Notes under the pieces: generated by a model
Told to the model about the DNA's origin: nothing
Database searches by the model: none
Seen by the model: the letters and a program-made list of their open reading frames with translations, nothing else
Program-made: the position numbers and the translations under genes
In this document: positions 558 through 30,156 of the stretch, in pieces
Layout: each line of letters opens with the position of its first letter
How positions within the stretch are numbered: position 1 is the first letter of the stretch
Origin: Escherichia phage ECO07P1
DNA: 64,000 nucleotides
Sequence record: OP172784
Strand: one strand, 5' to 3'

Positions 558-2259
<1,702 letters not shown>

Positions 2260-2289: not shown

Positions 2290-3753
2290 TTATGCTGGTG
2301 ATAAAAAGGTAGAAAGCAATACCCATTCGCCGTCTTTACGAACGTAAGCTTGGCCATCTTTTGGAGCTTCAGGAATATAACCTGCTTCTTGTAGAGCTTG
2401 AACATCACCTTGCAGAGAAGATATACTGCCTTTGGCTGTATTCACTTCTTGTGTAACTGATGCAATGTTGGTTTCGTTAGCTTTTATTGAATTGGTTAAT
2501 CCACGTTCTTCGACAGTTGAACCGTTTGGATTAGTTCCATTTACTAAAGTATTTAACGCTACAACTTGCCCTTTAATTCCTGTGCTGTTATTACCAATCT
2601 CTACTTGTAGGTTTTGAACATCATTATTCAAGCCTGAAACAGAAGTTTCAATTGTAGAAACTCGGTTTAAAAGAGACCCAGGAGGAGAAGGTTGTCCACC
2701 GCTAGAATCAGTTCCAACAATTTGGTTTAACCATGAAACATTCGCTCTTAAACCGGATGAAGTGTTTTCACCTACAATTCCGTTTAGAGCTTCGATTGAA
2801 GTTGTATTATCTTTAATTTGTCCTTTAATACTCGAAGGAATATCATCTGAACCGATAGAAGTTTCTATAGCGGTTAAACGCTGTTTAATACCTCCACTTT
2901 GATTTAGCTCTAAATTAATAGATGCAATATTATCAGTGTTTGTATTAACACTCGTGATAATCGAATTATTTCCTGGATATCCTATTGAGGTCTTAATAGC
3001 ACTAATGTCAGATTCAAATGTTGTCTGTTTAGTGTCAATTTCATTTAAACGACTATAAACGTTTTGTGAAAATGATGGCGGTTTCGGTCCAAGCTCTTCA
3101 CGAAGATTACCAACTTCAATAGTCAAAGAACCTACATCAGATTCAATAAATTTTGTTTCTAATTCGCTTAAACGTATTCCCTGTGAAGTAATGGCATCAG
3201 TATTATTAATAATGCGATGCTTCATTCCACTACTAGGATTTCCTACAACAGGAAGACCATTAATATCTTGACCTGCGTATTGTCCAAGTTCACGCTTTAT
3301 CCACAGTAAATCATTTCTGATTGTTCTGTATACAGAGTTGGCCTCAGAGTTAAATGGACCAATATCAGCAAGAATACTGTCAACCGTACTATTAGTTCCA
3401 TTTAATATTTCTGTATGTTCACTGGTTAGCGTTTTGAGGTCAGAAATATCCTTTTTATTGATACCTATTTGGGCCAAAGCTTCAATATCACCAGATACAT
3501 CTAAGATGCCCTGAATTGTTTTAATATCACTATTTGCGGTTTCTAAAGATGTTTTAAGTATTCCAATATTTTTATCAAGAACTTCAACATTTCTTAGTAC
3601 AGAAACTGTAGGTCTATTCATTGAACCTTCGCTTCCATACTGCGTGTCAGCTCCTAATATTTCTTCGCCGTTTTTAATCCAGGAAATGCGGCTCTGGCCC
3701 TCTGCAGGAGAGCCGTCAACGAATGGTAAGTCATTCAGTACAATATCTGTCAT
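2290..3753 (-). CDS. wac: fibritin (whisker antigen control)
   Basis: 487 aa; coiled-coil heptads; C-terminal foldon [27 protein letters not shown]. Confidence 0.95.
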
Positions 3754-5333
3754 TCTTTTACCTTAATTATGTAGTTTAAAGAAATGTTCCATGGACGTGT
3801 TTCATTTCCAATTAATTCAGGACGATTTAGTGTATATTTGGAATTTCGTTGTGATGCTGGGTCAATTTCATATCCGTCATTGGTGAAGTATGAATGGTTA
3901 TCCCAGTCAAGTCCTTTACGTGTACCAACAAAATTTGATCTACGAGTATTACCGAATGCCCCAGAATCATCAGCCTCACCAAATCCGCCAGCGTGTTTAT
4001 GATAAGACATCTGCTGTTTTTGTACTTCACCGACATATCCACCGGTACAACCTACACCTAATCTAGGCTTACCAAATTGGTCATTACCATTAACATTTGG
4101 ATTCGTTAAGTGAGAGCCACGACCAGAGCCACGAACAAAAAGACCACGCATGTCAGGCAATCCAGGATTTGATGAGCTTCCGCCATATCTTGTTCCAATT
4201 CTAGAAGCATATAATGGGCAATCTGACGCAGAAACAGTTCCACCATGACAGAAGCGCCAAGCATCACTAGGAAGACTATCTGCCGCCCACATCATAATAG
4301 CTCCGACAGGAATAGTTCTATCTATTTCATTCTGCGTTACAACACGCTTACCTTGAATATAACCACCGGTCATGTTAACTGTTCCGGTAATATTTGCTCC
4401 GCCTGAAGCTATTGTAAGCGTATTATTAATACGAAGTGTTCCATTAATCGTTTGACCACCTCTTTGGTGGATAACGTCAGCATTCCAAGCTAGTGCTGAT
4501 GAAGCATCACCTCCGCTCTGTGAACCGGCGGTTGTAGTTAATTTAACCACGCCTCTCATTGACGTTGTAGAACCACGACCATTAAGAGTTGCGCCAGTAA
4601 CCGCAACAGAAGCATTATTTGAGTTAACTTCTGATTGTGTTCCTAATTTAATTACGCCTTTATATTCTTCAGTAGCAGTAGAATTCATTAGCGTATAAGG
4701 AGAAATTGCATAGCCTTCTCTTAAGGTTCCTTGACGAACTTGAGCTACTGTCGCTAATTGAACAACGCCTTGGTCCGATTCGGTAGCTGTGGTTTCAGAA
4801 GGAGCGATTTGCGCAATTAGTTTAATAGCTAACTGCTGCGTTTTTAATGGAGTCATTGCAGTAGTATCATCTGCGCCAGCTAATGCTTGCGGTAGAGATG
4901 AAATTTTAATAACACCATTCGAGGATTCAGTTGAAACACGAGTTTCAAACGCATTATTAAGAGCAACAGTAAATTTAGCTGGAGTTATAGAAGATTCGTT
5001 ATTAACTCCGGCAATGGCTTCATCATTGGTTGAATATCTTGTTAATCCGTAAACAGTTTCAGTTGCATTTGGATAAGATAATCTTGTTGCCAACGTTGCT
5101 GGTGTAACTGCTTTGGTATTATTAGTTCCATCTATAACTTCCTGTTCAGTGGCAAGAAATAAAATTCCCTTTGTTGTTGACGATGCATCAGGAACTCCAT
5201 TTACGCCAGCAGGAGAAATGGCTGCTATAGCAGCCTGAACATCAGTAATCTCTGGTGGAAAATTCGTATCGGTAGGATCAAATTTTACATAACGAGATTC
5301 ATTAGAAACGTGTTGATATGTATTATTACTCAT
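3750..5333 (-). CDS. 12: short tail fiber gp12
   Basis: 527 aa; length and synteny as T4 gp12. Confidence 0.9.
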
Positions 5334-5989: not shown

Positions 5990-7797
5990 TATGCAATCCT
6001 TATCCAACGATAAACTGTAATATATGGTTGAATGTTAGTTATTGATGTTGGCGGAGTGTGAGTAGAGTTAGTAGATGCTTTAGCTTCACGGTATTTCGTG
6101 TAAACTGGACCGGATTCATCTGGATCGTATTGACATCCACCAACAATGACTGATCCATTTTCATCAACTATTAGAACTTCTTCATCTGTTTCAGTTGCAG
6201 GAAGATTAGCATTTTCCAATGTAACAGAAGTAGAACCGCCTGTTCCACCTGCAGTATGTGAAGGATTTCCACCCGAATCTAAATCGTTGTTATTTAGAGC
6301 AAAGTTAGGGTCCGAAATATCTTCATTCCATCCAACTAAAACTTTTCCTTGCCCAAATAATTTCCATGAGCCGAATCCCATATATGTAACAGGGTTATTT
6401 GGATTAACAGCGTTTTCATATATAGTTCCAATAGGATAAATCGTATCAAAGATATTTGAAACAGCATTAAATTCGCGTTGATAGGATTGAACTGCTTCTA
6501 CATTTGGCCAACCAATTTTATCGAAGTCTGTTAAATTTACATCACCTGAAATATCTACTCCCGGTCCTTGCGATACATAGAGATTATCAGTTTCATCAAT
6601 AATCTCATCTTTTGTTAATAATGTACCTAAATCATTATTAAACCAGGTGATATTGATAATGTCACCATGCTCAAATACTCTATCGAAATGTAAAATTTCC
6701 GGTATGCCGTTTTCGTCAGTTTCAACTGAATAGTCGGTATGAGACTGTTCCCAAGTTCCACCTAAAACAGAGCATTCTACTTCATCGTCTGAATCGGCAC
6801 CAACACAATGAAATAATGGCATTCCAACTGTTCCAGCCAATTCTTGTAAAATTCCATTAAAACGAACCTCAAGAGAATTAGGATTAATAGGTTCACCTGG
6901 AATTAATCCAAAAGCTGAAAATGGAATTGATTTCATTGTTGATAAATCAGTAACGTAAATGCTTCCTTCTAAAGAAGTTTTTGACGTTAATTTTGAATCT
7001 AACAGTCTAATTTGGCGTCTTGTATATGAACTTCTCCATTGTGATACACCATCCATAAATGTTTCAATTTGAACAGTGTCGCCAATATTACAAGGCTGTC
7101 TTAATCGAATATTAAATCCATCAAGAGGAACTAATTCGCCTTCATTTTCGCCCGGAGAGCCAAAATCACTGTTTTCACTAAATACATCGCCGTAATACAA
7201 TTCGTTACCACGATGTTTTACTCTGATGTTATTTACATTATAACTAGTTCCACGGAAAACATCTAAAAAGTCTGTTTGTCCTTGGACTTCGACTAAAAAT
7301 TCTTTACGAGCTACATTACTAATGTCTGAACTGGTAATTTTGTCAATTTGTTTATTTTTGACATATTCCCAACGTCCTGGGGCGCAATACACTAATTCCA
7401 AATCGCTGAATTGAACATTAATTTCAACTGGTACTGCAGAACCTTTAATCGTATCGCCGGAAGCAGCTACTAGCGTAACTGGGTTAACGTTCCATGTAGC
7501 AAATACGTCTCTAGCTCTAATTACTTTGTTGTAATCATTGACAGTTCCTTTTGGAAGATTTATAGTTACTCTTCCAGAAGAGGTATTAATAGCGTATGAT
7601 TTTCCCCATTCGGCTTTTAGTGTTTGGCCAGATGAAGCATCATAAGTTTTCCAGGCACCGGCTGAATATGGAACATCTCCATCACCGAGCTCGTAATAAA
7701 GCTCATCAAAGTTTTCATTTATTTTTATACCACCTTTACGCAGGTAGTCACCGGTACCATCATCAACAACATTACCGATATTAATATTTTGTTTCAT
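5989..7797 (-). CDS. 10: baseplate wedge protein gp10
   Basis: 602 aa; length and synteny. Confidence 0.9.
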
Positions 7798-21445: not shown

Positions 21446-21718
21446 ATGAAAACATTTAAAGAATTTATCAATGAAGCTGCTTTTAACGAAAAAGTAAAAA
21501 TTAGCAAAGCTGTCAAGACTATGATTGATAACATCAATTACCTATATGGTATTGATTTAACTGACTATGTAACAGTTGGTAACAAACGTAACTATTTCGT
21601 GTTTGACATCTCTGAACTTGACCAGAATCAAATTAACAACATTGAGCGTTTTGCTAATGATAAGGGTCTTCGTCATGAGTCAGCGGGTTATAAAAAATAC
21701 GCAATTTATTTAAAATGA
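21446..21718 (+). CDS. internal protein with N-terminal capsid-targeting sequence (ipI locus, copy 1)
   Basis: N-terminus MKTFKEFINEA resembles the T4 CTS MKTYQEFIAE with L/I-x-E cleavage site; SD ggaga. Confidence 0.7.
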   Translation: MKTFKEFINEAAFNEKVKISKAVKTMIDNINYLYGIDLTDYVTVGNKRNYFVFDISELDQNQINNIERFANDKGLRHESAGYKKYAIYLK

Positions 21719-21778: not shown

Positions 21779-22087
21779 ATGAAAACATTTAAAGAATTTA
21801 TCAATGAAGCGGCTGCACCAAAGACATTCATTATTTATACTCAAGCGGGTCTTGATGATGAGTATGCGGAAGCAATTCTGAGGTCACTTGCTAAGAACGG
21901 TGTTGAAGTAATTGCTTCGGACTTTAAGAAAGGGGCTTCCGAGATGTTTATTTCTATAACTAAAGGATCTAAAGCTAAAATCAAATCATCATTCGGTGTT
22001 GCTCGTACCGATCAAATCGACAATCATGACTTTAAACAAACTGGTGCTAAACGACAGAATACAATTGCATCACGCGGAATAAAATAG
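21779..22087 (+). CDS. internal protein with CTS (ipI locus, copy 2)
   Basis: N-terminus MKTFKEFINEAAAPK; 102 aa. Confidence 0.7.
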   Translation: MKTFKEFINEAAAPKTFIIYTQAGLDDEYAEAILRSLAKNGVEVIASDFKKGASEMFISITKGSKAKIKSSFGVARTDQIDNHDFKQTGAKRQNTIASRGIK

Positions 22088-22157: not shown

Positions 22158-22382
22158 ATGAAAACATGTAAAAAATTTATTGTAGAAGCTAAAAGACACG
22201 AAGACGAACTGCCTTTTGTTTCAAAAACCTTTGATGGAACATTGGCTGATTTTAAAAAAATTCCTAATGATAAACTTGCTAAATTGGTTGGTTCTATTAG
22301 TGAAAAAGATGGCAAGGTCACATTTTCTGCTCAAGGCGTTGCCAATCTCAAGAAACTTTTGAAAGCCGCTGGTGTTGAATAA
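22158..22382 (+). CDS. small protein with CTS-like N-terminus (ipI locus, copy 3)
   Basis: N-terminus MKTCKKFIVEA; 74 aa; SD gaggag. Confidence 0.6.
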   Translation: MKTCKKFIVEAKRHEDELPFVSKTFDGTLADFKKIPNDKLAKLVGSISEKDGKVTFSAQGVANLKKLLKAAGVE

Positions 22383-23013: not shown

Positions 23014-23086
23014 TGGGAATTAGCCAAGTTGGTAAGGCACTGGATTTTGATTCCAGGATGCAAAGGTTCGAGTCCTTTATTCCCAG
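23014..23086 (+). tRNA. tRNA-Gln (anticodon UUG)
   Basis: Manual cloverleaf: acceptor tgggaat/attccca, anticodon loop ttTTGat, T-loop GTTCGAG. Confidence 0.85.
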
Positions 23087-23087
23087 C

Positions 23088-23174
23088 GCGAGAATGGTCA
23101 AATTGGTAAAGGCACAGCACTTAAAATGCTGCGGAATGATTTCCTTGTGGGTTCGAGTCCCACTTCTCGCACCA
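23088..23174 (+). tRNA. tRNA-Leu (anticodon UAA)
   Basis: Acceptor gcgagaa/ttctcgc, anticodon loop ctTAAaa, long variable arm, encoded CCA. Confidence 0.85.
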
Positions 23175-23179
23175 AATTT

Positions 23180-23253
<74 letters not shown>

Positions 23254-23263
23254 ATTTAATTTA

Positions 23264-23337
23264 CTCCGTGTAGCTCAGTTTGGTAGAGCGTCTGCTTTGG
23301 GAGCAGAATGTCGCAGGTTCAAATCCTGCCGCGGAGA
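23264..23337 (+). tRNA. tRNA-Pro (anticodon UGG)
   Basis: Anticodon stem tctgc/gcaga, loop ttTGGga; T-loop GTTCAAA. Confidence 0.8.
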
Positions 23338-23339
23338 CT

Positions 23340-23429
23340 GGAGGCGTGGCAGAGTGGTTTAATGCACCGGTCTTGAAAACCGGCAGTCGCTCCGGCGACT
23401 CATAGGTTCAAATCCTATCGCCTCCGCCA
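23340..23429 (+). tRNA. tRNA-Ser (anticodon UGA)
   Basis: Acceptor ggaggcg/cgcctcc, loop ctTGAaa, long variable arm, CCA. Confidence 0.85.
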
Positions 23430-23434
23430 GTTTT

Positions 23435-23510
23435 GCTGATTTAGCTTAGTAGGTAGAGCAACTCACTTGTAATGAGAAGGTCGGCGGTTCGATTCCGTCA
23501 ATCAGCACCA
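23435..23510 (+). tRNA. tRNA-Thr (anticodon UGU)
   Basis: Acceptor gctgatt/aatcagc, loop ctTGTaa, T-loop GTTCGAT, CCA. Confidence 0.8.
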
Positions 23511-23511
23511 A

Positions 23512-23586
23512 GGCCCTGTAGCTGGAAGGTTCAAGCAAGCGACTCATAATCGCCAGATGGTGGTTCAATTCCACCCAGGGCCACCA
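23512..23586 (+). tRNA. tRNA with CAU anticodon (Ile2-type or Met; T4 tRNA-Ile has CAU)
   Basis: Acceptor ggccctg/cagggcc, loop ctCATaa, T-arm ggtgg-ttcaatt-ccacc, CCA. Confidence 0.75.
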
Positions 23587-23599
23587 AATTAAGAATTAA

Positions 23600-23686
23600 G
23601 GGGAGTTATCCCGTAGAGGTAGCGGTGTGGACTGTAAATCCATTGTCATTGCGACTCGGGTGGTTCGACTCCATCACTCCCCACCA
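23600..23686 (+). tRNA. tRNA-Tyr (anticodon GUA)
   Basis: Acceptor ggggagt/actcccc, anticodon stem gtgga/tccat, loop ctGTAaa, long variable arm, CCA. Confidence 0.8.
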
Positions 23687-23690
23687 ATTT

Positions 23691-23765
23691 GGATGTGTAG
23701 CTCAATGGCAGAGCGATCGCCTGTTAAGCGATTGGTTATAGGTTCGAATCCTATCACGTCCGCCA
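23691..23765 (+). tRNA. tRNA-Asn (anticodon GUU)
   Basis: Anticodon stem atcgc/gcgat, loop ctGTTaa, T-arm atagg-ttcgaat-cctat, CCA. Confidence 0.8.
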
Positions 23766-23769
23766 AATC

Positions 23770-23845
23770 CGAGGCATAGCTCAGAAGGAAGAGCAAGGAC
23801 CTTCTAAGTCCTAGGTCGTAGGTTCGATCCCTACTGCCTCGACCA
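23770..23845 (+). tRNA. tRNA-Arg (anticodon UCU)
   Basis: Acceptor cgaggca/tgcctcg, anticodon stem aggac/gtcct, loop ctTCTaa, CCA. Confidence 0.85.
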
Positions 23846-23861: not shown

Positions 23862-24212
23862 ATGAAAGGTAATGTTTATTTAGTAGTTCATGATTTAACA
23901 TTCTATTTTAATCATAATGACACTGTTATTTCTGAACGCGTAATTAATTTGCTTTATCAGCACGCAGATTATGTTTATGTCGAAAACGAATACGGTCATT
24001 GGCAATTTCTCAAAAATCGTTCATTTGGTTTAGATGGTTACGAATACTTTGAACGTAAAGACCTTTTAGATAAAATTCCATTATCTACACAATATCAAAA
24101 TCACAAGTCTTTACATAAATGCCGTCCAATTCGAAATGTTGAATCTGCGTATGAAGCAATTGATTTGTGGCGTAAACGCCGTGAACAGATTGATGCTTTA
24201 AAAGAATATTAA
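23862..24212 (+). CDS. hypothetical protein
   Basis: 116-aa ORF right after the tRNA array; SD gaggaaaa. Confidence 0.6.
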   Translation: MKGNVYLVVHDLTFYFNHNDTVISERVINLLYQHADYVYVENEYGHWQFLKNRSFGLDGYEYFERKDLLDKIPLSTQYQNHKSLHKCRPIRNVESAYEAIDLWRKRREQIDALKEY

Positions 24213-24214
24213 GA

Positions 24215-24553
24215 AACCGGGTCGCTACCGGTAAGTCGTCGGACTGATGTTCCCTGGGTAAGGACTGGCATTAACAAATCTTTACGATTTGTTAATGTCC
24301 CCTTACATCACAGCAGAAACGGCGCACCGAATTATCGATTCGAGGAAATATCTTTGCCGTAAGCCGAGTAGCGTTTTTGACGGAACGTTCGGATATGGTC
24401 GAGATATGGCCTTTTAAAAATATTAAGTAGCGTCAACTGCTTAATAACCGGGTTCGAATCCCGGCGTTTCGTACAAACACTTGCCTTAGCAGGTGGAACC
24501 CCGACAAGGTTGCCGCAAGGCTTAGCCCCGACCGAAAGGTTGGGGCTTTTTAG
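24215..24553 (+). ncRNA. structured noncoding RNA region (position of T4 stable RNA species 1/2, rnaC/rnaD)
   Basis: About 340 nt, GC-richer, no ORF; several hairpins and a tRNA-like T-arm ccggg-ttcgaat-cccgg; ends in a terminator. Confidence 0.45.
24525..24553 (+). terminator. rho-independent terminator
   Basis: gccccgacc-gaaa-ggttggggc followed by TTTTT. Confidence 0.55.
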
Positions 24554-24641
24554 TTTGAATCACTCGGATAACGCTGTTACGGATAATAACAAAGTAATAA
24601 ATAATTAATAACCAACCGATAGATTATTTCAAGGATTTTAA

Positions 24642-25205
24642 ATGAAAACTTATGCCGAATTTTTAACCGAAGCAGCAAAATTACCATCTGAAGCAGAACT
24701 TACTAAAGTATTCTTCCAATTGGACCCAAAAGACCGTGGCGATTTTCTTAAGTGGAAAGCTAAAGCTATTGAAATGTATAACATTGATAATAGTTCTTTT
24801 ACGATGAGTCAAGAAAATAAATTCAATAAAGCATTTTTCAAAATTTCTAAGAAACTGGCATCTGGCGCTCAGGTTCCTAAATCTGCCTTAGCTACTCCTG
24901 AACGTGCGCCTGTTAAAATTTCTAAGAATATGTTCGACACTAAAAAATACGTTAATGCTTTGAATAAAGCTCTTGATGCATTGGATGATGCAAAGAAGGC
25001 AGCCCGTGATCTTCAAGACGTGTACATCGATTTTGATCGTAAAACTAAAGGTTCTATTTCAAATAGCGAACGCAATAGTGTAAGCGTTTATTCTGATAGC
25101 CTTGACGTTCTTGGCGATGCGTATACTGAAATTAAAAATCGTATTAACACCGCATCTAAACTAAAAGCTGCCGCAGAAGCTATAATAGCTAAACTAGATA
25201 AATAA
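24642..25205 (+). CDS. 187-aa protein with capsid-targeting sequence (candidate internal protein)
   Basis: N-terminus MKTYAEFLTEAA (CTS-like); lysine-rich helical remainder. Confidence 0.7.
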   Translation: MKTYAEFLTEAAKLPSEAELTKVFFQLDPKDRGDFLKWKAKAIEMYNIDNSSFTMSQENKFNKAFFKISKKLASGAQVPKSALATPERAPVKISKNMFDTKKYVNALNKALDALDDAKKAARDLQDVYIDFDRKTKGSISNSERNSVSVYSDSLDVLGDAYTEIKNRINTASKLKAAAEAIIAKLDK

Positions 25206-25213
25206 TTTTAAAT

Positions 25214-25238
25214 CCCTATCTAAATGATAGGGCTTTTT
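25214..25238 (+). terminator. rho-independent terminator
   Basis: ccctatc-taaat-gataggg then CTTTTT. Confidence 0.6.
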
Positions 25239-25372: not shown

Positions 25373-25403
25373 GTTTACATCCCCGTTCTTCCATGGTACT
25401 ATA
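25373..25403 (+). promoter_or_regulatory. early promoter with A/T UP element
   Basis: aaaaaattttttcacaaaactGTTTACA, 18-bp spacer, tGGTACTAT; cassette recurs at 41757. Confidence 0.6.
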
Positions 25404-25446: not shown

Positions 25447-25710
25447 ATGGATAATTACGGCGAACTGTTCAACTTCTTTATGAAATGCGTTTCAGAAGAT
25501 TTCGGTCGTACAGTGAATGATATTAAAGTCATCGGTCCTGACCATCCGATGTTTGAAACTTACGCAGTAATGGGTAATGAAGACGGTCAGTGGTATACTG
25601 TAAAAGTTGTGATTAATATGTTCACTGCTGAAGGTTATGTTAAACTGTCTTCTAAAGTTTACCACGATAACGATGAAATCGCAGAAGAATATTTCAATAA
25701 TATGAAATAA
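25447..25710 (+). CDS. hypothetical protein
   Basis: 87 aa from ATG with SD ggag; track ORF extends upstream into the promoter. Confidence 0.6.
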   Translation: MDNYGELFNFFMKCVSEDFGRTVNDIKVIGPDHPMFETYAVMGNEDGQWYTVKVVINMFTAEGYVKLSSKVYHDNDEIAEEYFNNMK

Positions 25711-25998: not shown

Positions 25999-26592
25999 AT
26001 GAACACACTGAAGAAAATTGTTGATTTTATTCGCACTAAACTTGGTTCTGCAATGGCTAAAAATCTATCTGTTGAAGAACAGTATACTGCTGCAGCAGCA
26101 AAACTGCTTGATAAAATTAAAGACCTAAAAACTGCTTCTGTTAAATCTATTAATGAAGAAAAACGTATTCGTGAACTTATTGTTGAAAAGAATAAACAGG
26201 CTGAATCAAAAGAGCGTGAAATTCGCAAGCTTCTTTCCGAAGGTCAAGATGTAACAATGCATGCTAAACTTGGCTTGCTATATCGTCGAACAGCTGAACA
26301 GCTGACTACTAAAGCTGATGGGTATGCTGAAATGCGAATTGAAATCGCCAAGAAAGTAGTTGAGTTAGATGATGCTCGTCAAGAACTTGCAGTTAAATTG
26401 GAATATATCCGTGAAACTCGTGCGGCAAATGCCCTTGGAATTAGTACTGCTGATGATGTAGTTGAAATCGCAGCGCTAACTAAGGTTGATATTGAAGATA
26501 CTCTTGCTCGAGTTGAAACCTTTAACGGTAATATTTCCGGGGTTGAAACCACCTCTGCCGATGTCCAGGAATATATTAATTCTCTGAAATAA
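25999..26592 (+). CDS. alpha-helical coiled-coil protein, function unknown
   Basis: 197 aa, heptad-rich and charged. Confidence 0.65.
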
Positions 26593-26633: not shown

Positions 26634-27242
26634 ATGAAAATGCAAAGTGATTTCAATTCAATGTTTGAAGAGTTCCAAAGACAGGTTGATGTTCCAGACC
26701 AATTACTAAATGCTCTTAAACGTATGGCAGAAGGACGTAATTATTATTGGGGGTCTTCATATGAAACTGATGAAAGTCTTTCTGGAAGATTTTCTAGAGG
26801 TAAAAAGTCTTTAATACGTCCTGGAATACTCATTAAAAGTATTGAATCAATTCATTCATTGACGTGTGATTTTGATGTTGAATTTACTGATTTCATTTCT
26901 CCTGAATGGACAGTTTGTTATTTAAATGACGATTATGATTATCTTGGCGTTTATAGTTTAAGTGACGCATGGTTTAAACGTAATTTACAAAAGTCAAATT
27001 TGTTCTATATTGATACTACGGTAAAATTTCAGGGAAAGAAATATTTCTTTACTCTTATAGTTGACTCTGAAACAAAATATGAAAATAAGCGTATTCTTAG
27101 TAAAAAGAATATCTTAACTATCGTTGATGATCTTTTTGATAAATTCGTGGAAAATCCTAATTTTGAAAGCGATTTATTATTAGAAAAATTTGTTAAGGAA
27201 TGTAGAGAATATGTCAAAGCCATCACTATACCTTCCAAGTAA
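26634..27242 (+). CDS. hypothetical protein sharing the C-terminal FVKECR motif with the downstream membrane-protein family
   Basis: 202 aa; ends EKFVKECREYVK overlapping the next gene start. Confidence 0.65.
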   Translation: MKMQSDFNSMFEEFQRQVDVPDQLLNALKRMAEGRNYYWGSSYETDESLSGRFSRGKKSLIRPGILIKSIESIHSLTCDFDVEFTDFISPEWTVCYLNDDYDYLGVYSLSDAWFKRNLQKSNLFYIDTTVKFQGKKYFFTLIVDSETKYENKRILSKKNILTIVDDLFDKFVENPNFESDLLLEKFVKECREYVKAITIPSK

Positions 27243-28881: not shown

Positions 28882-29684
<803 letters not shown>

Positions 29685-29716: not shown

Positions 29717-29742
29717 CATTCATCAACTACTTGGAGGAAATT

Positions 29743-30156
29743 ATGACTCGTATCAATTTAACACTTGTTTCTGAACTGACCGACCAACATCTTATGGCTG
29801 AGTATCGTGAATTACCACGCGTATTTGGTGCAGTCCGTAAACATGTTCAAAACGGTAAACGTGTAAAGGATTTTAAAATCTCTCCAACATTTATCTTAGG
29901 CACAGGTCACGTAACATTCTTTTACGACAAACTCGAATTTTTACGTTTACGTCAAATCGAGCTAATCGCTGAATGCTTGAAACGTGGTTTCAAAATCAAG
30001 GACACGACTGTCCAGGATATTTCCGACATCCCTGTCGAATTTCGTAATAATTATGTCCCGTCCGAAGCGTCCATTGCGATAAGTCAAGCTCGCTTAGATG
30101 AAAAAATTGCTCAACGCCCTACTTGGTACAAATACTATGGTAAATCAATTTACTAA
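29743..30156 (+). CDS. denV: endonuclease V (pyrimidine dimer DNA glycosylase)
   Basis: 137 aa; [31 protein letters not shown] matches remembered T4 endo V. Confidence 0.95.

Follow-up and report, generated by a model that had tools for sequence, protein, structure and literature searches.

The stretch analyzed here (the window) comprises 64,000 nt of Escherichia phage ECO07P1 (record OP172784), a Tequatrovirus (T4-like) genome, and the subject of this work is an open reading frame of 187 codons (ORF187) that lies on its plus strand between rnaC and the orthologue of e.8. In phage T4 the order at this position is tRNA-Arg, rnaD, rnaC, a 284-bp gap and e.8; in the window the gap is interrupted by a cassette that holds a promoter-like motif, a Shine-Dalgarno sequence, the ORF and a terminator (Table 1). 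The 1 kb around ORF187 is 99.9% identical to Escherichia phage EP01 and is matched by 676 phage records; the protein itself is encoded in 164 records, in all of which it is annotated 'hypothetical protein'. A sequence-only reading of the window had placed a 187-aa protein at this position and had assigned it to an e.x accessory block. An ATG-initiated ORF occupies exactly that interval, and the assignment is roughly right, in that ORF187 lies immediately upstream of the e.8 orthologue and downstream of rnaD and rnaC.

Table 1. Features of the ORF187 locus, of the other loci discussed and of comparison sequences (aa, amino acids; AF2, AlphaFold2; CTS, capsid-targeting sequence; pLDDT, predicted local distance difference test score; L and P numbers are handles for comparison sequences and proteins)
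Sequence	Feature	Position	Strand	Remarks
Window	ipI locus, CTS gene 1	21446-21718	+	
Window	ipI locus, CTS gene 2	21779-22087	+	matches 'IP7' (Silas 2023 gene table)
Window	ipI locus, CTS gene 3	22158-22382	+	matches a CTS-labelled protein (same table)
Window	tRNA gene region	23014-23845		
Window	116-aa ORF after tRNA-Arg	23862-24212		
Window	rnaD	24212-24328		
Window	rnaC	24335-24473		
Window	T4-homologous spacer downstream of rnaC	24474-24551	+	T4 gap nt 1-78, 96% identity (BLAST); left border of cassette
Window	intrinsic terminator of spacer	24524-24547 (hairpin) plus T-tract	+	strong; terminator scan
Window	left 9-bp direct repeat GGGCTTTTT	24543-24551	+	terminator tail at cassette junction; exact-match search
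Window	cassette	24552-25238	+	687 bp, absent from T4; T4 alignment and BLAST
Window	putative late promoter AATAAATA	24596-24603	+	one mismatch to T4 late promoter TATAAATA; 46 nt 5' of ATG
Window	Shine-Dalgarno AAGGA	24631-24635	+	6 nt upstream of ATG; read from sequence; kept in six orthologous loci
Window	ORF187 coding sequence	24642-25205	+	187 aa plus stop; ATG start; begins MKTYAEFLTEAAKLPSEAE; PHROG 2280 member
Window	CTS/propeptide MKTYAEFLTE	24642-24671	+	predicted gp21 cut after E10, motif L8-T9-E10/A11
Window	N-terminal helical domain, residues 13-75	24678-24866	+	AF2 pLDDT 77-87; conserved
Window	flexible basic linker, residues 76-99	24867-24938	+	AF2 pLDDT <50 for residues 77-90; length-variable
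Window	C-terminal long helical hairpin domain, residues 100-187	24939-25202	+	AF2 pLDDT ~90; variable, recombining module of the family
Window	ORF187's own intrinsic terminator	25214-25238	+	hairpin 25214-25232 plus T-tract; annotated terminator in phages G29 and OE5505
Window	right copy of GGGCTTTTT	25230-25238	+	tail of ORF187's own terminator; T4 gap homology resumes at 25230
Window	sigma-70-type early promoter serving e.8	25374-25402	+	TTTACA-17-TACTAT, TG extended; 3' of cassette, common to T4
Window	e.8 orthologue	25447-25710		directly downstream neighbour of ORF187
Window	e.6 orthologue	25999-26592		bas37_0240 in Bas37
Window	e.5 orthologue	26634-27242		bas37_0239 in Bas37
Window	93-aa CTS-type ORF	29403-29684	+	predicted cut before S; start overlaps stop of lysozyme gene e
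Window	denV	29731-30156		
Window	ipIII	start 30485	+	CTS frame, e/denV locus
Window	ipII	start 31105	+	CTS frame, e/denV locus
Bas37 (MZ501089)	bas37_0243	141028-141591		ORF187 orthologue
Bas37 (MZ501089), L004	bas37_0244	6218-6691	minus	absent from window
L008	P0010, natural chimera	1800-2150		
L010	57B orthologue	1173-1523		annotated with Pfam Acb1
L012	144-aa protein directly 3' of P0014	2092-2526		precomputed ART-PolyVal / DUF3990 Pfam matches
G29, L015	extra 157-aa CTS protein, e/denV locus	2973-3446	minus	MKTYQEFITE/AAINSQ...
OE5505, L016	extra 157-aa CTS protein, e/denV locus	3729-4202	minus	MKTYQEFITE/AAINSQ...

The N-terminus of ORF187 resembles the leader by which the internal head proteins (Ips) of T4 enter the capsid. 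The first 10 residues of T4 IPIII suffice for packaging, with targeting residing mainly in residues 4 and 7 and processing in residues 8 and 10 (PMC9026906), and fusions to such a CTS bring green fluorescent protein, beta-galactosidase and nucleases into T4 heads (PMC9026906, a review of Black's work). ORF187 keeps Y4, F7, L8 and E10, that is, all four of the IPIII positions mapped experimentally; it has the targeting determinants of the Ip class (Y/F at position 4 and F at position 7) and a predicted cleavage site of the class type, in which (L/I)-x-E occupies positions 8-10 and a small residue comes next; this is the one [LI]xE site in the protein. The leader is predicted to be disordered (AF2 pLDDT <50 over residues 1-11). 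When a strict CTS pattern was run against every ATG-to-stop frame of 40 aa or more in the window (585 frames, both strands counted), seven matched, none of them on the minus strand. The canonical Ip loci account for six (three at ipI and three at e/denV; Table 1), and the seventh is ORF187. Because so few frames match and the other six belong to known Ip loci, the match of the ORF187 leader is specific rather than due to chance. In an alignment of 12 diverse family members the leader reads M-x-x-[YF]-x-[EQD]-[FI]-[LIT]-x-E, with E10 invariant and the aromatic residue at position 4 kept, and this pattern persists in homologues whose bodies are 20-32% identical to that of ORF187.

Beyond the leader the protein goes its own way. 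The BLASTP alignment of ORF187 with the IPIII of the window is confined to residues 1-12 (8 of 12 identical), and the body is therefore unrelated to those of IPI, IPII and IPIII. The predicted mature form has 177 aa, a mass of 19.7 kDa, 14.7% lysine, an isoelectric point (pI) of 9.46 and a net charge of +8, compared with 182 aa, pI 9.60 and +9 for mature IPIII of the window; a mature protein that is small and basic, and whose body is unrelated to other Ip bodies, is itself a feature of the Ip class. An AF2 run on a shallow alignment (pLDDT 61) was superseded by a run on a deeper alignment, which gave an all-helical model of two domains with a mean pLDDT of 78.7. The sequence-only reading, which had described a capsid-targeting leader on a long lysine-rich helical body unlike the ipI, ipII and ipIII products and had named structure prediction as a check, is thus borne out on leader, composition and predicted fold alike. 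The protein gave no above-threshold match in Pfam, in NCBIfam or in a profile search against PDB sequences, the sole hint being a sub-threshold match of a helical, cytochrome b562-like kind.

ORF187 matches the profile of PHROG 2280, a family of unknown function, with E = 3.4e-53 over residues 1-181 of 187, and the same profile is matched by all 12 aligned members. A word-indexed search of 5.8 billion proteins returned 11 clusters, all at least 90% identical save two chimeras. When 1.84 billion representatives were searched exhaustively with an HMMER profile, five proteins were returned, and one of them, P0014, is a true relative over its full length (32% identity). With P0014 as the seed, a further search added eight proteins, from Enterobacter phage vB-EclM_KMB17 and metagenomic T4-like contigs, and Foldseek against BFVD added RB69ORF149c and a protein of Yersinia phage fHe-Yen9-01. 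The family as defined by these searches is narrow yet spans several Tevenvirinae lineages (Tequatrovirus, RB69, Enterobacter phage). Across members 20-97% identical the N-terminal domain retains T21, K22, R32, D34, K37, Y46, I48, A64 and F65; the linker is rich in Pro, Ala and Lys in remote homologues and expanded in P0015-P0018, and in phage CT01 a 75-nt in-frame deletion (about residues 67-91) removes essentially the disordered linker; the C-terminal domain occurs in at least two types in the alignment. Comparison of Tequatrovirus orthologues gives a pN/pS of 0.06-0.12 (pS ~0.14), from which it follows that ORF187 is a real gene under purifying selection.

Several relatives are rearranged or displaced. 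P0010 is a natural chimera that joins a non-CTS N-terminus to ORF187 residues 113-175. Among metagenomic proteins, P0011 joins the mid-section of ORF187 to the C-terminus of NudE, implying a deletion from e.8 to e.2, P0013 joins the N-terminus of e.8 to the last ~28 aa of ORF187, and P0012 has a frameshift after residue 63. The gene for P0014 stands at a different locus, downstream of a 30.3-like gene, and is followed directly by a 144-aa protein with ART-PolyVal / DUF3990 matches, which denote an ADP-ribosyltransferase domain characteristic of polyvalent proteins that are injected. One Mosigvirus-like metagenomic contig (L010) encodes a homologue 89% identical to ORF187; there the 57B orthologue bears a Pfam Acb1 annotation (an anti-CBASS nuclease family) and trna.4 follows it directly, and the phage represented by this contig therefore has no gene at its ipI locus.

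The borders of the cassette suggest how the T4 arrangement came about. The 9-bp repeat GGGCTTTTT stands at both junctions, in each case as the tail of a terminator, and the empty site in T4 reads GGGGCTTTTT followed directly by GGTATCTAAGCC. In KMB17 the order is tRNA cluster, PHROG 2280 gene and a homologue of e.8 (38% identical, E = 1e-15), so the position of the gene is conserved across genera. Most likely the gene is ancestral at the rnaC-e.8 position in Tevenvirinae and was lost from T4, and the T4 empty site would be explained most simply by a deletion through recombination between the repeated terminator tails.

Expression of ORF187 appears to be late only. The predicted terminator of the spacer would shield ORF187 from upstream tRNA/rnaC transcription, and a promoter scan combined with inspection found no convincing sigma-70-type promoter or MotA box between this terminator and the ATG, AATAAATA being the only promoter-like element there. 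Comparison of the 260 nt 5' of the start codon across family lineages shows AATAAATA at -46 in the window type, GATAAATA at -42 in CT01, AATAAATA at -45 in the 89%-identical Mosigvirus-like contigs (where the remaining upstream sequence is unrelated), GATAAATA at -43 in the 32%-identical P0014 and canonical TATAAATA at -36 / -35 in the KMB17 type. Thus (N)ATAAATA occurs at -35 to -46 in all family lineages, and a hairpin terminator precedes each copy. That a 7-base motif keeps its distance to the start codon while its four sequence contexts are otherwise dissimilar amounts to the phylogenetic footprint of a putative late promoter, and ORF187 appears to be a late-only, terminator-insulated unit, as a virion component needs.

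In Bas37-type genomes a second gene with a CTS lies beside ORF187, between rnaC and the ORF187 orthologue. The proteins of this family (bas37_0244 / RB32ORF132c) have 157 aa and start MKSYTQFLNE/A, and their similarity to ORF187 is confined to the leader. The layout of bas37_0244 consists of an rnaC-type terminator copy, canonical TATAAATA at -46, a Shine-Dalgarno sequence, the ORF and an identical second terminator copy. This family is encoded in 512 phage records, again always as 'hypothetical protein', and the Silas 2023 gene list includes a truncated form of it, not labelled as CTS. Searches of the literature by sequence or locus tag found no mention of ORF187 or bas37_0244. Silas et al. 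described two Ip loci and tested ip1-10 (PMC12373910). Location in one of these (57B-ipI-trna.4 or e/denV-ipIII-ipII) is a usual though non-defining feature of Ips, and the genes between rnaC and e.8 lie in neither; ORF187 and its frequent neighbour bas37_0244 define, by their predicted leaders, a third, widespread and unannotated Ip locus.

The two canonical loci of the window have features of their own. The ipI locus holds three tandem CTS genes, each with an early promoter and stem-loop (GTTTAC-N17-TACTAT) like the promoter(early)-stem-loop (PeSL) elements of T4-type phages, whereas ORF187 has the late-type motif only. At the e/denV locus the order is e, a 93-aa CTS-type ORF, denV, ipIII and ipII, which differs from T4; the 93-aa protein, with a near-neutral mature pI of 6.3 and four [LI]xE sites, is unlike other Ips. 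The window further has 10 tRNA genes versus eight in T4 (extra Met, Tyr and Asn; the Ile call is absent), a 116-aa ORF after tRNA-Arg, and no match to the T4 homing endonuclease gene segB.

Taken together, these features indicate that ORF187 quite probably adds a new family to the T4-type internal head proteins, with its gene at a third Ip locus, and that the protein is probably made late, processed by gp21, packaged and injected. According to the mechanism proposed here, transcription would be late only, from the (N)ATAAATA promoter, with a terminator closing the unit at either end; the leader MKTYAEFLTE would bind the gp22 scaffolding core, as is known for the IPIII CTS, and so enter the assembling prohead; gp21 is predicted to cut after E10 (L-T-E/A), leaving the 177-aa basic protein in the head with the DNA; the protein would then be ejected with the DNA into the next host, ahead of any phage gene expression, where, by analogy, the N-terminal domain and the variable C-terminal hairpin would act on a host or DNA-associated target. 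Its role would most likely be that of the Ips with assigned functions, namely to protect the incoming glucosylated hydroxymethylcytosine DNA from nuclease-type defence. A conserved N-terminal domain joined to a variable, recombining C-terminal domain could fit an adaptor-plus-specificity design (compare the chimera P0010). The sequence-only reading had spoken of a second candidate injected effector outside the ipI locus; the CTS-tagged candidate is supported by every check open to sequence analysis and its separate location stands, the locus being rnaC-e.8, while the word 'effector' is owed to analogy with Ip1-3 and Bas37_0260.

Several observations weigh against this assignment. Sequence and structure searches detected no similarity of the ORF187 body to known anti-restriction proteins and no informative fold. 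Searches of the literature and of peptide and locus-tag strings turned up neither virion proteomics nor N-terminal sequencing nor an injection assay concerning ORF187 or its family; the search for virion proteomics of carrier phages took in the paper on fPS-65/fPS-90. ORF187 is listed in no supplementary table of Silas et al., and its family was not one of ip4-10 or of the accessory genes that they screened. The promoter motif of the window is a one-mismatch variant of TATAAATA and is a putative promoter only. Finally, in published transposon data for phage Bas37 only 1 of the 48 TA dinucleotide sites of the ORF187 orthologue, bas37_0243, was hit, and the gene was called 'Essential' on E. coli K-12, whereas known Ips are dispensable in laboratory hosts; dispensability on standard hosts is a usual, non-defining feature of Ips that this orthologue does not share.

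These transposon data come from the HIDEN-SEQ preprint, in which Bas37 (MZ501089, KarlGJung) was mutagenised, and the figures used here are from its Extended Data Tables 6 and 7. The product of bas37_0243 has 187 aa with six non-synonymous differences from the window, and its mean read counts are ~0.2 in every host. Our own counts of TA sites equal the table totals (48, 34, 23, 13, 15, 18), so the row does refer to the ORF187 orthologue. Its surroundings are called Non-essential: bas37_0241 was hit at 13 of 13 sites, bas37_0242 (e.8) at 23 of 23, the neighbouring CTS gene bas37_0244 at 29 of 34 and bas37_0245 at 33 of 38. The same call was given to the anti-McrBC Ip bas37_0260 (15/15, reference library) and to T4 ipI (24/24), ipII (22/23) and ipIII (42/46). 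In the transposon, acrVIA1 is driven by a strong promoter of its own, BBa_J23119, and there is no terminator (HIDEN-SEQ preprint). Failure of a late-only unit to express the transposon acr is ruled out as the source of the 'Essential' call by this promoter, by the tolerance of late-only soc (17/17) and packaged alt (174/179), and, as the best control, by that of bas37_0244. Polarity is unlikely and was rejected, as bas37_0241, 0242, 0244 and 0245 and T4 rnaC and rnaD are non-essential; multi-mapping is ruled out because bas37_0243 is single-copy; and a function as antitoxin to the neighbouring CTS gene is ruled out by at least 348 records that have the neighbour without ORF187 and by the window, in which the reverse is the case. 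The first 23 codons of bas37_0243, ahead of any foldable domain, contain about six TA sites, and at most one site in the gene was hit; this pattern favours loss of function over toxic fragments. For Bas37 the Cas13a host is given as K-12 dRM, and bas37_0260 is fully hit in the same library, which makes McrA, McrBC and Mrr unlikely targets; nor does the requirement agree with a simple anti-restriction role tied to particular strains. Whether the orthologue is truly required in its native background we regard as evenly balanced, and the public 'Essential' call suggests that ORF187 is unlike a dispensable accessory effector.

Two deposited genomes, G29 (MK327940) and OE5505 (NC_054926), contain single-A deletions that split ORF187. 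The study behind them used 'either Illumina or PacBio RS II'; with the platform thus ambiguous, the deletions are possibly errors, and these alleles were not accepted as proof of dispensability. At the e/denV locus both phages have one further CTS protein, of 157 aa, which Bas37 lacks, and Bas37 has neither ipII nor ipIII between denV and e; this may reflect background-dependent redundancy among Ips, or coincidence. Beside ORF187, the orthologues of e.6 (bas37_0240; log2 fold change -6.5, q = 0) and e.5 (bas37_0239; log2 fold change -3.6, q = 0) are strongly depleted in one clinical-isolate comparison of the HIDEN-SEQ tables; knockouts of both were built by the HIDEN-SEQ authors, whose main text is silent on them, and they are candidate anti-defence genes.

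The data admit other readings. ORF187 could be an ordinary dispensable Ip whose 'Essential' call is an artefact of the assay or a locus-specific effect of the transposon (through its outward sigma-70 promoter or toxic truncated products), which we find plausible, though with somewhat less than an even chance of being correct. The HIDEN-SEQ authors admit six false 'essential' calls in T4 (inh, hoc, segE, uvsW, segC, wac), and the hoc-inh-segE-uvsW block was scored essential in Bas37 as well (0015-0018); the transposon has an outward promoter and no terminator, the gene is absent from T4 and most relatives, two genomes carry the splitting deletions, and bas37_0243 goes unmentioned in the HIDEN-SEQ main text, its call undiscussed. 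Yet the adjacent bas37_0244, which has the same strand and layout and likewise no early promoter, tolerates insertions, as do soc and alt, and the non-essential neighbouring genes and RNAs make polarity unlikely; the gene is single-copy with TA counts that match the table exactly, the scarcity of hits, early codons included, points to loss of function, and the frameshifted genomes are possibly assembly errors.

A true requirement would be accommodated if the protein were packaged by its CTS but had its main role inside the particle and not against the host, morphogenetic or DNA-organising, much like IPIII in head assembly or like DNA-end or DNA-coat protection, and were indispensable in small-Ip phages such as Bas37. 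The near-absence of insertions in a phage without ipII and ipIII agrees with such a role, and T4 mutants lacking IPIII give a 40% burst and polyheads (PMC9026906); however, T4 ipIII itself tolerates insertions and the triple IP0 mutant is viable (PMC9026906), so an IPIII-like assembly role is not expected to score as essential. ORF187 matches IPIII in mature size and charge, the Pro/Ala/Lys-rich linkers of its remote homologues resemble histone tails, and, as typical arms-race ORFans do not, it keeps its N-terminal domain and its genomic position from genus to genus; its variable, recombining C-terminal domain, in contrast, resembles an arms-race module, and T4 and most of the ~676 related records lack the gene altogether. 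The extra CTS protein of both frameshifted-allele phages, missing in Bas37, speaks for an internal role, and the co-occurrence of ipII, ipIII and ORF187 in the window speaks against it; strict complementarity between ORF187 and ipIII is ruled out, as the window has both. On balance we consider a mainly structural role unlikely, though by no means negligible. Very improbable, in our view, is that the CTS-like N-terminus is vestigial or coincidental and ORF187 a cytoplasmic, unpackaged late protein: the leader is kept, with E10 and aromatic-4, in 20-32% identical homologues with diverged bodies, the 10-residue CTS alone suffices in T4, so that a late-made protein with an intact CTS would be packaged by default, and the putative late-only expression fits a virion component. 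Two points are in its favour: packaging is argued from sequence, and in the chimera P0010 the N-terminus ahead of the C-terminal domain is not a CTS.

Injected internal proteins encounter host immunity before any other phage factor does. The textbook view holds that Ips are dispensable, and the requirement, if it holds, contradicts that view and would point to an activity of the host, or to a step of assembly, with which T4 deals in another way. We put forward, as a doubtful proposal, that PHROG 2280 is the first T-even capsid-targeted injected protein found to be indispensable in its native genome on laboratory K-12, being ancient, position-conserved and lost by T4. If this is true, the protein would either guard the entering DNA from a core, non-strain-specific host activity or serve a productive step in head formation or ejection, and its absence from T4 would explain how six decades of T4 genetics missed it. 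The requirement is directly testable, as its carrier Bas37 already has a published genetic system. The families of ORF187 and bas37_0244 (164 and 512 records) also offer new candidates for anti-defence screens and for host-range engineering in phage therapy. ORF187 is unusual among Ips in its cross-genus synteny, its apparently late-only insulated cassette and its apparent growth requirement in public transposon data.

Comparison with known systems places the predicted Ip family of ORF187 as follows. Work published in 2025, which assumes two Ip loci, established all three T4 Ips and one Ip of Bas37 as specific type IV restriction inhibitors: Ip1, Ip2 and Ip3 each inhibit one distinct GmrSD-type enzyme without cross-protection (PMC12373910), and Bas37_0260, from the ipI locus, inhibits McrBC (10.1101/2025.11.20.689424). 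ORF187 would share with Ip1 (IPI*), Ip2, Ip3 and Bas37_0260 the logic of CTS, packaging and co-injection and the plan of small, basic, unrelated bodies behind a shared leader in variable cassettes; it has no sequence or fold similarity to any of them, but the class itself shares none. It differs in lying outside the tested ip4-10 set and in being conserved and syntenic across genera, unlike the ORFan-like Ips. With T4 IPIII the likeness is closest in the leader (MKTYAEFLTE in ORF187, MKTYKEFIAE in IPIII of the window, with the same residues 4, 7, 8 and 10 mapped and one predicted gp21 site each) and in mature length, pI (9.5 versus 9.6) and charge. Past residue 12 the two have no sequence similarity; they differ further in the all-helical two-domain fold predicted for ORF187, in locus (rnaC-e.8 rather than e/denV), in the late-only motif of ORF187 as opposed to a PeSL-type early promoter nearby, and in tolerance of insertions, which IPIII shows and the ORF187 orthologue does not. 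The Dar proteins of phage P1 (DarA/DarB/Hdf), described as head-packaged, DNA-protecting injected proteins of which some affect head morphogenesis (PMC12810830), belong to an unrelated phage, with unrelated proteins and packaging signals, and resemble ORF187 in concept only.

At the level of the locus, the nearest counterpart is the bas37_0244 family, which occupies the same rnaC-e.8 site with the same cassette layout and is unannotated in all records; it differs in its unrelated body, its greater frequency, its dispensability and its absence from the window. T4-type phages are known for modular shuffling through PeSLs (Arbiol et al. 2010, PMC2839356), and the ORF187 locus resembles this process in that a single-gene cassette is gained or lost between short repeated stem-loop regulatory sequences that also insulate transcription. 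Here, however, the repeats are terminator hairpins or their tails without an early promoter (the window has the 9-bp GGGCTTTTT, Bas37 entire rnaC-type terminators in duplicate), and the cassettes between them carry putative late promoters.

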